A stretch of 64,000 nucleotides of DNA from Escherichia coli. GTDB taxonomy: Bacteria; Pseudomonadota; Gammaproteobacteria; Enterobacterales; Enterobacteriaceae. The stretch lies in the NCBI RefSeq assembly GCF_045037415.1, contig NZ_CP173438.1; one strand, 5' to 3'. The position numbers and the translations under genes were made by a program. This document shows positions 23,919 through 25,423 of this stretch, piece by piece; position 1 is the stretch's first letter, and each line of letters starts with the position of its first letter. The notes under the pieces are model-generated. The model was given only the letters and a program-made list of their open reading frames with translations, was not told the origin of the DNA and ran no database searches.

Positions 23919-24371
23919 TTAATGTTGCGGTTTATATCGCATATAAAAATTAGTAAACCACGTTCCCCGGCATTCAACGCGCTGCTGCTTAACTGTCTGA
24001 AAACCATAACGTTCAAAAAAGGGTTTTGCGGTTATGCTGGCGTCCACCGTAAGTTCGGATTCAGACTTAATCAATGGTTTTAACAAAGCGCTGGCAACTC
24101 CGCGTCGGGTGTATTCCGGTTCAACAAATAACATATCGATATAATGTCCAATGCGGGTAATAAAACCAACCGGTTGTGCATTAATAACTGCAACCCGCAC
24201 TTGTGATTTCGCGAGTTTCTCCTTCCAGCGAGATTCGTCAATCTGCGCCCAGGCGGCAATTTGCTGTGGAGAATAGTGCTGACTCGCCGTCATCGTAACA
24301 GCTCGAAGGAAAATAGCGCATAGTTGCTGAAAATCACCAGGCTGATAGTTTCTTATTTGTATGTTATTCAT
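23919..24371 (-). CDS. yafP: GNAT-family acetyltransferase YafP
   Basis: 150 aa; directly downstream of dinB with 4-nt overlap. Confidence 0.8.
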
Positions 24372-25423
24372 AATCCCAGCACCAGTTGTCTTTCCATTTG
24401 CGGGTCAAGCAACGTCACATGCAGCCCCACCAGTCGCACACCGCGCCCGCCGCGGCGTTCATCCCAGGTTTTACGCGCGGTGGCGATTAGATCAGATTTA
24501 TTCAGCCGCGGCCAGACGTGTTCCTGGGTGGTTTGCTGAAAATCGTCGAACTTTAATTTCACCCCCTGGCGGGCAATCAGCAAATCAGGTTTTACCTTTG
24601 CCAAACGACGCTCCAGTTCAGGGTAAAGCCGCTCGATGATCGCTTCACATTCAGACCAGTGATGAATATCTTCCGCCATCGTACGTTCTACACCGACGGA
24701 TTTTCGCAACCTTTCGCTGTTAACGTCGCGTTCGTCAATGCCCTGACTACGCTCCCACAAAATGCGGCCAAATTTGCCAAAGCGTTTAAGCAGCATCACC
24801 AGATCACACTTTTGCACATCACCGCAGGTCCGCAGCCCCATCGCTTCCAGTTTTGCCGCCGAGACTTTGCCGACGCCGGGAATTTTTGCCAGCGGTAAGG
24901 TTTGTAAAAATGTCGGAACTTCTGCCGGCGTAATCACAAACTGGCCGTTGGGTTTATTCATGTCGGAGGCGATTTTGGCGAGAAACTTTACTGGTGCCAC
25001 GCCCGCAGACGCCGTCAGTTGCAGCTCGTTGAAGATCGTCTGGCGGATTTCCTGGGCGATGAGGGTCGCAGAACCGTGGCAATGGACGCTATCGGTGACA
25101 TCGAGATAGGCTTCATCCAGTGATAACGGTTCAATGCGCGAGGTATAGCGCGAGAAAATTTCGCGGATATGATTTGAGGCTTCTTTGTAGGCGTCAAAGC
25201 GCCCTGGAAGCAAGGTGAGATGCGGGCATAATTTGAGCGCCATCCCTGTCGGCATAGCGCTACGTACGCCAAATTTACGCGCGGGATAATTGGCGGTGCT
25301 GATCACCCCCCGTCGTTCGCGGCTGCCGCCAATAGCAATAGGGATATCGCGCAGGGCGGGATTGTCGCGCATCTCCACCGCTGCGAAAAAGCAGTCCATA
25401 TCCACATGAATGATTTTACGCAT
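24368..25423 (-). CDS. dinB: DNA polymerase IV
   Basis: 351 aa; [20 protein letters not shown].. Y-family polymerase. Confidence 0.95.

Follow-up and report, generated by a model that had tools for sequence, protein, structure and literature searches.

The two-gene dinB-yafP operon of an Escherichia coli strain, without the yafN-yafO cassette of K-12

The dinB operon described here lies in a window of 64 kb, the whole stretch of Escherichia coli DNA that was analysed, and contains two genes only. The region 23919-25423 of the window spans exactly from the yafP stop codon to the dinB start codon, both genes being read on the minus strand. The features of the operon and of its upstream region are as follows.

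24368..25423, minus strand: dinB, DNA polymerase IV, 351 amino acids, first gene of the operon (ORF)
23919..24371, minus strand: yafP, GNAT-family N-acetyltransferase, 150 amino acids, second and last gene of the operon (ORF)
24368..24371, minus strand: ATGA, shared by the dinB TGA and the yafP ATG, the presumed stop-start coupling site (read from the sequence)
24368..24374, minus strand: ATTATGA, present as a single copy (alignment with K-12)
25438..25457, minus strand: LexA (SOS) box of the dinB promoter, CACTGTATACTTTACCAGTA, with 1 mismatch to the K-12 dinB box
25447..25474, minus strand: sigma-70-like hexamers TTCTCA and TATACT with a 16-nt spacer, overlapping the LexA box (consensus scan)

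Both gene products can be assigned with confidence. DinB matches the NCBIfam equivalog NF002677 'DNA polymerase IV' over residues 1-345 (545.9 bits, cutoff 256), and its Pfam domains IMS, IMS_HHH and IMS_C (PF00817, PF11798, PF21999 and PF11799) all score above their cutoffs. With a full-length equivalog match, the IMS catalytic core, the HhH and the little-finger domain (IMS_C), it is a Y-family polymerase, and it shares 99.4% protein identity with K-12 DinB. YafP matches the equivalog NF007338 over residues 1-150 of 150 (326.2 bits, cutoff 146) as well as the Pfam family Acetyltransf_10 (PF13673), and is 94.7% identical to K-12 YafP at the protein level; the full-length match and the place of the gene directly downstream in the dinB operon establish its identity. 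Its accession, WP_001059897.1, is common to the window, EC958 and DETEC-E480.

At the boundary between the two genes the minus strand reads ...CTG GGA TTA TGA, and ATG AAT AAC... begins inside it. The earlier note had described a 4-nt overlap of the dinB stop and the yafP start, which the ORFs and the raw sequence bear out: the two genes share ATGA, both reading frames are intact, and nothing lies between them, as defines the two-gene allele. Chance is of no concern for this junction, the observation being a structural one. A tblastn search with K-12 YafN and YafO (E <= 1e-5) returned no homologue of either protein in the whole 64-kb window, which holds no adjacent pair of antitoxin and toxin genes of the YafN-YafO type II kind. 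The K-12 proteins themselves match NF007300/PF02604 (Phd/YefM-type) for YafN and NF007377/PF13957 (YafO_toxin) for YafO. To note, the NCBI product name for NF007300 is 'type I toxin-antitoxin system antitoxin YafN'; the 'type I' label is probably a naming slip, YafN being the protein antitoxin of a type II system.

Upstream of dinB, a search with the K-12 dinB box found CACTGTATACTTTACCAGTA as a unique match in the window (0 expected by chance), differing from the K-12 box at one outer position; we take it to be the dinB LexA operator. It is a CTG-N10-CAG box that overlaps the promoter, as expected for an operon of the SOS regulon. The generic LexA consensus 20-mer TACTGTATATAAAAACAGTA, searched with up to 3 mismatches, gave no match. 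Over the 100 nt that precede dinB, window and K-12 share 98% identity. The sigma-70-like hexamers are a weak match when taken alone (4 sites found, 3.1 expected), and their position and conservation with K-12 tentatively suggest a promoter. On the distal side, a terminator scan of positions 23600-23919 found no minus-strand terminator downstream of yafP.

In K-12, the induction of dinB by DNA damage and its repression by LexA are established (PMC3105422, PMC7167474). The conservation of the dinB promoter region and of the LexA box makes co-transcription of yafP with dinB in the SOS response most likely, and one LexA-controlled transcript of both genes is predicted for the window strain. Similarly, the ATGA stop/start overlap, together with the hexamer GGGATT directly before the yafP ATG, a poor Shine-Dalgarno as judged by eye only, makes termination-reinitiation coupling to dinB the most likely mode of yafP translation. 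Both genes would be transcribed together from the LexA-repressed dinB promoter, ribosomes ending dinB would re-initiate on yafP, and YafP output would thereby be tied to DinB translation. Gutierrez et al. 2011 used the term 'translational frameshifting' for the overlap (PMC3105422); contrary to this wording, the geometry of the junction is that of ordinary ATGA coupling. The same study found that yafP is still expressed when dinB is replaced (PMC3105422).

The neighbourhood of the operon carries several further features. On the yafP side, positions 21979-23741 hold an intact rtcB-family RNA ligase gene and prfH, of which the K-12 counterparts, ykfJ and prfH, are pseudogenes. On the dinB side, the Flag-2 lateral flagella cluster is kept (window ~25494-47900), of which K-12 retains only the lfhA and lafU remnants. 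Three insertion sequences lie outside the operon. An IS1-like element of 757 bp (27281-28037), 11 bp shorter than the standard 768 bp and with insB split into two ORFs, is flanked by a 9-bp target duplication and lies within the Flag-2 stator gene lafT/motA, 3-11 nt from its 5' end. This gene is intact in DETEC-E480 and EC958, and the insertion has probably inactivated the lateral-flagellar motor gene in the window strain. A full-length IS1 of 768 bp (11087-11854) disrupts hsdS, which encodes the specificity subunit of a type I restriction-modification system in the island beside tRNA-Thr and proA; the element is flanked by an 8-bp target duplication and has no counterpart in DETEC-E480. Lastly, an IS3-family element of ~1.43 kb (32560-33991), with orfA and orfB (NF033516, 299 bits), occupies the fliD-lafA intergenic region of Flag-2 and is also absent from DETEC-E480; we take it to be IS150-like.

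The statement in the earlier note that K-12 has yafN-yafO between dinB and yafP agrees with the RefSeq annotation of MG1655, where the four genes are placed as follows.

250898-251953: dinB
252005-252298: yafN
252301-252699: yafO
252709-253161: yafP

Alignment of the window with K-12, proposed in the earlier note as the check, yields a single clean gap of 759 bp in otherwise collinear sequence, with no further rearrangement; K-12 does not have the direct dinB-yafP junction. The block present in K-12 is composed of a 51-bp intergenic region, yafN, yafO and a 9-bp spacer, and the gap relative to the four-gene allele of strain N58 is likewise exactly 759 bp. In four-gene alleles, whose repeat boundaries were compared in K-12, SCPM-O-B-8794 and E. 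whittamii, the cassette is bracketed by a 7-bp direct repeat, ATTATGA, with its copies 759 bp apart (5948-5954 and 6707-6713 in the K-12 locus, L001). The window retains one copy of the two. As four of the seven bases (ATGA, providing the TGA stop and the ATG start) are functionally forced, only 3 bases of the repeat match beyond need, an extent expected by chance in ~1 of 64 cases. In the K-12 type II cassette, YafN is a Phd/YefM-type antitoxin and YafO a ribosome-dependent mRNA interferase. With the cassette absent, cells of the window type would lack SOS-induced YafO from the dinB locus, and yafP would be without a second promoter, as the intergenic region that presumably holds the autoregulated promoter of the toxin-antitoxin pair is missing as well.

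A four-gene allele of phylogroup B2 comes near to that of the window: the N58 allele, identical to that of ATCC 11775, equals the window over ~580 nt around the junction, the indel aside. A 2001-nt region of the window is identical to that of the ST131 strain EC958, with the same protein accessions. The two forms share the species about equally. A 100-nt junction probe matched 2566 of 5426 complete E. coli genomes (47%) with >=80% coverage, and a K-12 cassette probe gave a match of any length in 2847 and a match with >=80% coverage in 2831; the four-gene probe from N58 detected 2833 at the latter threshold. Direct junction and cassette (2566 and 2847) together account for 5413 of the 5426 genomes. 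The presence/absence variation of a toxin-antitoxin module proposed in the earlier note is thus confirmed, K-12 having the module and the window being cleanly without it, with both forms common in E. coli. These numbers are in line with Gutierrez et al. 2011, who found only dinB and yafP in 40% of sequenced strains and in 50% of ECOR strains, with the ATGA overlap in all two-gene strains, and who described group A as having mostly four genes, B1 two, and B2 and D as mixed (PMC3105422). Taken as a whole, the best explanation, to which we assign a probability of roughly 80%, is that the window carries a natural two-gene allele of the SOS-regulated dinB operon. This allele is ordinary and was already published in 2011; the direction of change alone is disputed.

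A precise loss of the cassette between the ATTATGA repeats is somewhat favoured over a primary empty site. Loss could have occurred in an ancestor by replication slippage or illegitimate recombination, or alternatively by homologous replacement with an already cassette-free allele, and a deletion between the repeats would give the in-register ATGA junction every time. Gutierrez et al. 2011 proposed at least three deletions through recombination between ATGA sequences, noting only the ATGA part of the repeat (PMC3105422). Several observations bear on the age of the cassette at this site. The yafNO pair is found directly downstream of dinB in three genus-level lineages, Escherichia and the metagenomic enterobacterial lineages L019 and L032. 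The gene order is nqr-dinB-yafN-yafO-yafP-pepD-gpt-frsA in L019 (2597-4858) and dinB-yafN-yafO-pepD, with no yafP, in L032 (2-1076). The pepD gene of L019 has 85% nucleotide identity to both E. coli and Citrobacter, and between K-12 and L019 the nucleotide identity is 79% for yafN, 77% for yafO and 80% for dinB, with dS saturated. The same site in three lineages and a divergence as deep as that of the flanks argue that the cassette is a long resident after dinB and no recent arrival in Escherichia. A motif upstream of yafNO in L019 and L032, TGTATACTAT...GTGTGCATT, is conserved with K-12 and is probably the operator of the toxin-antitoxin pair.

Within Escherichia, four genes are present in E. 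whittamii and SCPM-O-B-8794, and a four-gene-derived allele in Escherichia sp. E1V33. In the latter (L002, 3676-4001), yafN is kept and only the first 8 codons of yafO are left, which makes yafN an orphan antitoxin; the yafO deletion lies between TTAT microhomologies. E. coli PKF4 (L013, 883-1281) has an internal stop in yafO. These two strains exhibit independent, toxin-first decay of the module. The ~580 nt around the junction in which the B2 four-gene allele and the window agree, the indel aside, are a further point in favour of loss. Gutierrez et al. 2011 also list E. fergusonii among the bearers of four genes (PMC3105422). Our YafP contig scan recovered only four Escherichia loci and one unrelated planctomycete; E. 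fergusonii and E. albertii were not recovered by it, and their state rests on the literature. A cluster look-up for E. fergusonii YafO gave only a mixed YafO/YafP cluster named E. coli, and for the YafP of Yokenella no contig position was found.

The main alternative, for which we see perhaps half the likelihood of loss, reads the window junction as a primary empty site: dinB-yafP would be ancestral, and yafNO a later insertion that duplicated its ATTATGA target, which would have left dinB and yafP both intact, and afterwards passed from one Escherichia lineage to another through homologous recombination. Fraikin et al. 2020 take the insertion view: for them, the operons of the same strains are 'undisturbed bicistronic operons', and yafNO has been inserted (PMC7167474). 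The 7-bp direct repeat does bracket the cassette exactly, as a target-site duplication would; against this, 4 of its 7 bases are forced, so that the argument is carried by the 3 extra ones. A tight, cassette-free dinB-yafP pair occurs in Citrobacter amalonaticus, Klebsiella aerogenes, Kluyvera intermedia and E. marmotae, and the synteny of the window, dinB-yafP-rtcB-prfH-pepD, is also that of K. aerogenes and E. marmotae; the occurrence of the pair in other genera makes the two-gene operon look older than the cassette at the family level. The junctions themselves are not the same, however. E. marmotae and Escherichia sp. MOD1-EC7003 have the ATGA overlap of the window, whereas C. amalonaticus, K. 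aerogenes and Kluyvera intermedia have a dinB TAA, 2-5 nt and the yafP ATG. As these other genera are without the overlap, the form seen in Escherichia does not simply represent the ancestral junction of the family.

Mobility of the YafNO family is indicated by homologues of ~69% identity that Klebsiella and other bacteria carry on islands of unrelated context, which also speaks for insertion, as does a diversity of the cassette lower than that of its flanks, not predicted by simple vertical descent with deletions. Conversely, no transposon-like ends or recombinase accompany the cassette (boundary sequences were read by eye), its presence after dinB in three genus-level lineages with a divergence as deep as the flanks is difficult to reconcile with a late arrival, and the independent, ongoing decay of yafO points to loss. 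Plasmid-borne spread was also looked for: the plasmid search gave only F-prime plasmids and mislabelled chromosomes, always with the dinB/yafP flanks, and no sign that plasmids have carried this cassette around. A YafO locus with an apparent identity of 79% (L031, a Logan SRR27475577 contig) was rejected: it proved to be the four-gene dinB operon of E. coli in which G has been systematically converted to A. This pattern resembles that of bisulfite-type or damaged reads and yields a spurious YafO cluster in the protein database.

The diversity of the cassette deserves a separate description. In a small, hand-picked sample of seven four-gene alleles (L001, L003, L005, L008, L012, L013 and L017), the values are the following.

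yafN: nucleotide diversity (pi) 0.028, mean dS 0.117
yafO: nucleotide diversity (pi) 0.019, mean dS 0.043
dinB: nucleotide diversity (pi) 0.049, mean dS 0.220
yafP: nucleotide diversity (pi) 0.054, mean dS 0.148

Among these seven alleles, polymorphism in yafN and yafO is 2-3 times lower than in dinB and yafP; the cassette has 44 segregating sites in 693 and the flanks have 196 in 1509 (for seven hand-picked alleles, Fisher p = 1.5e-6). The dS of yafO is ~5 times below that of dinB, and the pattern holds even between E. coli and E. whittamii. Neither simple model, loss or insertion, explains this low diversity. A speculative account, to which we give roughly the same limited credence as to the insertion, is that yafNO is no passive ancestral passenger on its way out but a selfish element with its own dynamics, which repeatedly re-invades cassette-free alleles by homologous recombination. 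The cassette DNA coalesces 2-5 times more recently than the surrounding dinB and yafP, including between E. coli and E. whittamii, which would fit such re-invasion; toxin-antitoxin addiction would make gain of the cassette easier than its replacement; and the original insertion could have left its trace in the ATTATGA repeats. If this were true, the site in the window may never have been occupied, or may have been emptied again in a cycle of gain and loss.

If the cassette was lost, as we favour, it may have been lost once or repeatedly. Two-gene alleles occur on at least four flanking haplotypes, which on the yafP side stay alike for no more than 21-35 nt from the junction, and each of them matches or closely resembles a four-gene or four-gene-derived allele. 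A patch in the middle of dinB (window 24731-24998) distinguishes the allele of window and EC958 from the otherwise near-identical one of N58 and ATCC 11775 by 20 SNPs in ~270 nt (7%); it looks like a recombination import from a divergent lineage. As the region is mosaic, the flanks cannot separate a new deletion from an allele replacement or from a cassette import, and the flanking haplotypes were rejected as a proof of recurrent new deletions. It is conceivable, if rather improbable, that one ancient deletion produced a single two-gene allele, subsequently moved between lineages and species by homologous recombination. All two-gene alleles that were sampled do have one and the same junction, the mosaic nature of the region is evident, and strain Z1323HEC0477 combines an N58-type dinB with a window-type yafP and no cassette. 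However, the haplotypes, at least four in number, would need many crossovers inside a very short homology. Given the repeat and a selection that keeps dinB and yafP intact, deletion could plausibly recur at one and the same site. Lastly, an assembly or sequencing artefact (a collapsed region), for which no evidence was found, is effectively refuted by the same junction in 2566 complete genomes and by 100% identity over 2 kb in EC958, DETEC-E480 and others, and both intact reading frames and the PCR sequencing of ECOR strains, which reported the same junction (PMC3105422), likewise stand against it.

As a discovery, the absence of yafNO from the window matters little: the two-gene operon has been known since 2011 and is present in about half of E. 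coli. It is the normal form in major pathogenic lineages such as ST131, and it marks the window as non-K-12, of B2/ST131 type. What is described for K-12, a YafO toxin activity linked to SOS, does not extend to two-gene strains. Only three points are mildly new: that the repeat extends over 7 bp, how both forms are distributed across genera, and the diversity deficit of the cassette. With its clean natural pair of empty and filled sites, the locus lends itself to the question of loss, gain or cycling of chromosomal toxin-antitoxin cassettes, and the gap in diversity between cassette and flanks could turn the debate on deletion versus insertion into a testable population-genetic question.

Three known systems may be compared with the operon of the window. 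The two-gene operon of CFT073, UTI89 and EC958 has the same gene pair, the ATGA overlap, no yafNO and an upstream LexA box; there is no substantive difference from the window, the strain-specific IS insertions being located outside the operon. The four-gene operon of K-12 has the same promoter and LexA box, the same dinB and yafP genes and the same chromosomal position, between lafU and pepD. It differs by the extra 759 bp bracketed by the ATTATGA repeats and, in its surroundings, by the loss of most of the Flag-2 cluster and the pseudogenisation of rtcB (ykfJ) and prfH; the window has kept cluster and genes intact, IS insertions aside. A like polymorphism is that of relA-mazG and relA-mazE-mazF-mazG, where, in K-12, two cistrons of a housekeeping operon are separated by a type II toxin-antitoxin pair (PMC7167474). 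In strains without mazEF, relA-mazG is an undisturbed bicistronic operon, comparable to dinB-yafP (PMC7167474). The relA-maz case, likened here from the description in PMC7167474, concerns another locus and another toxin family.
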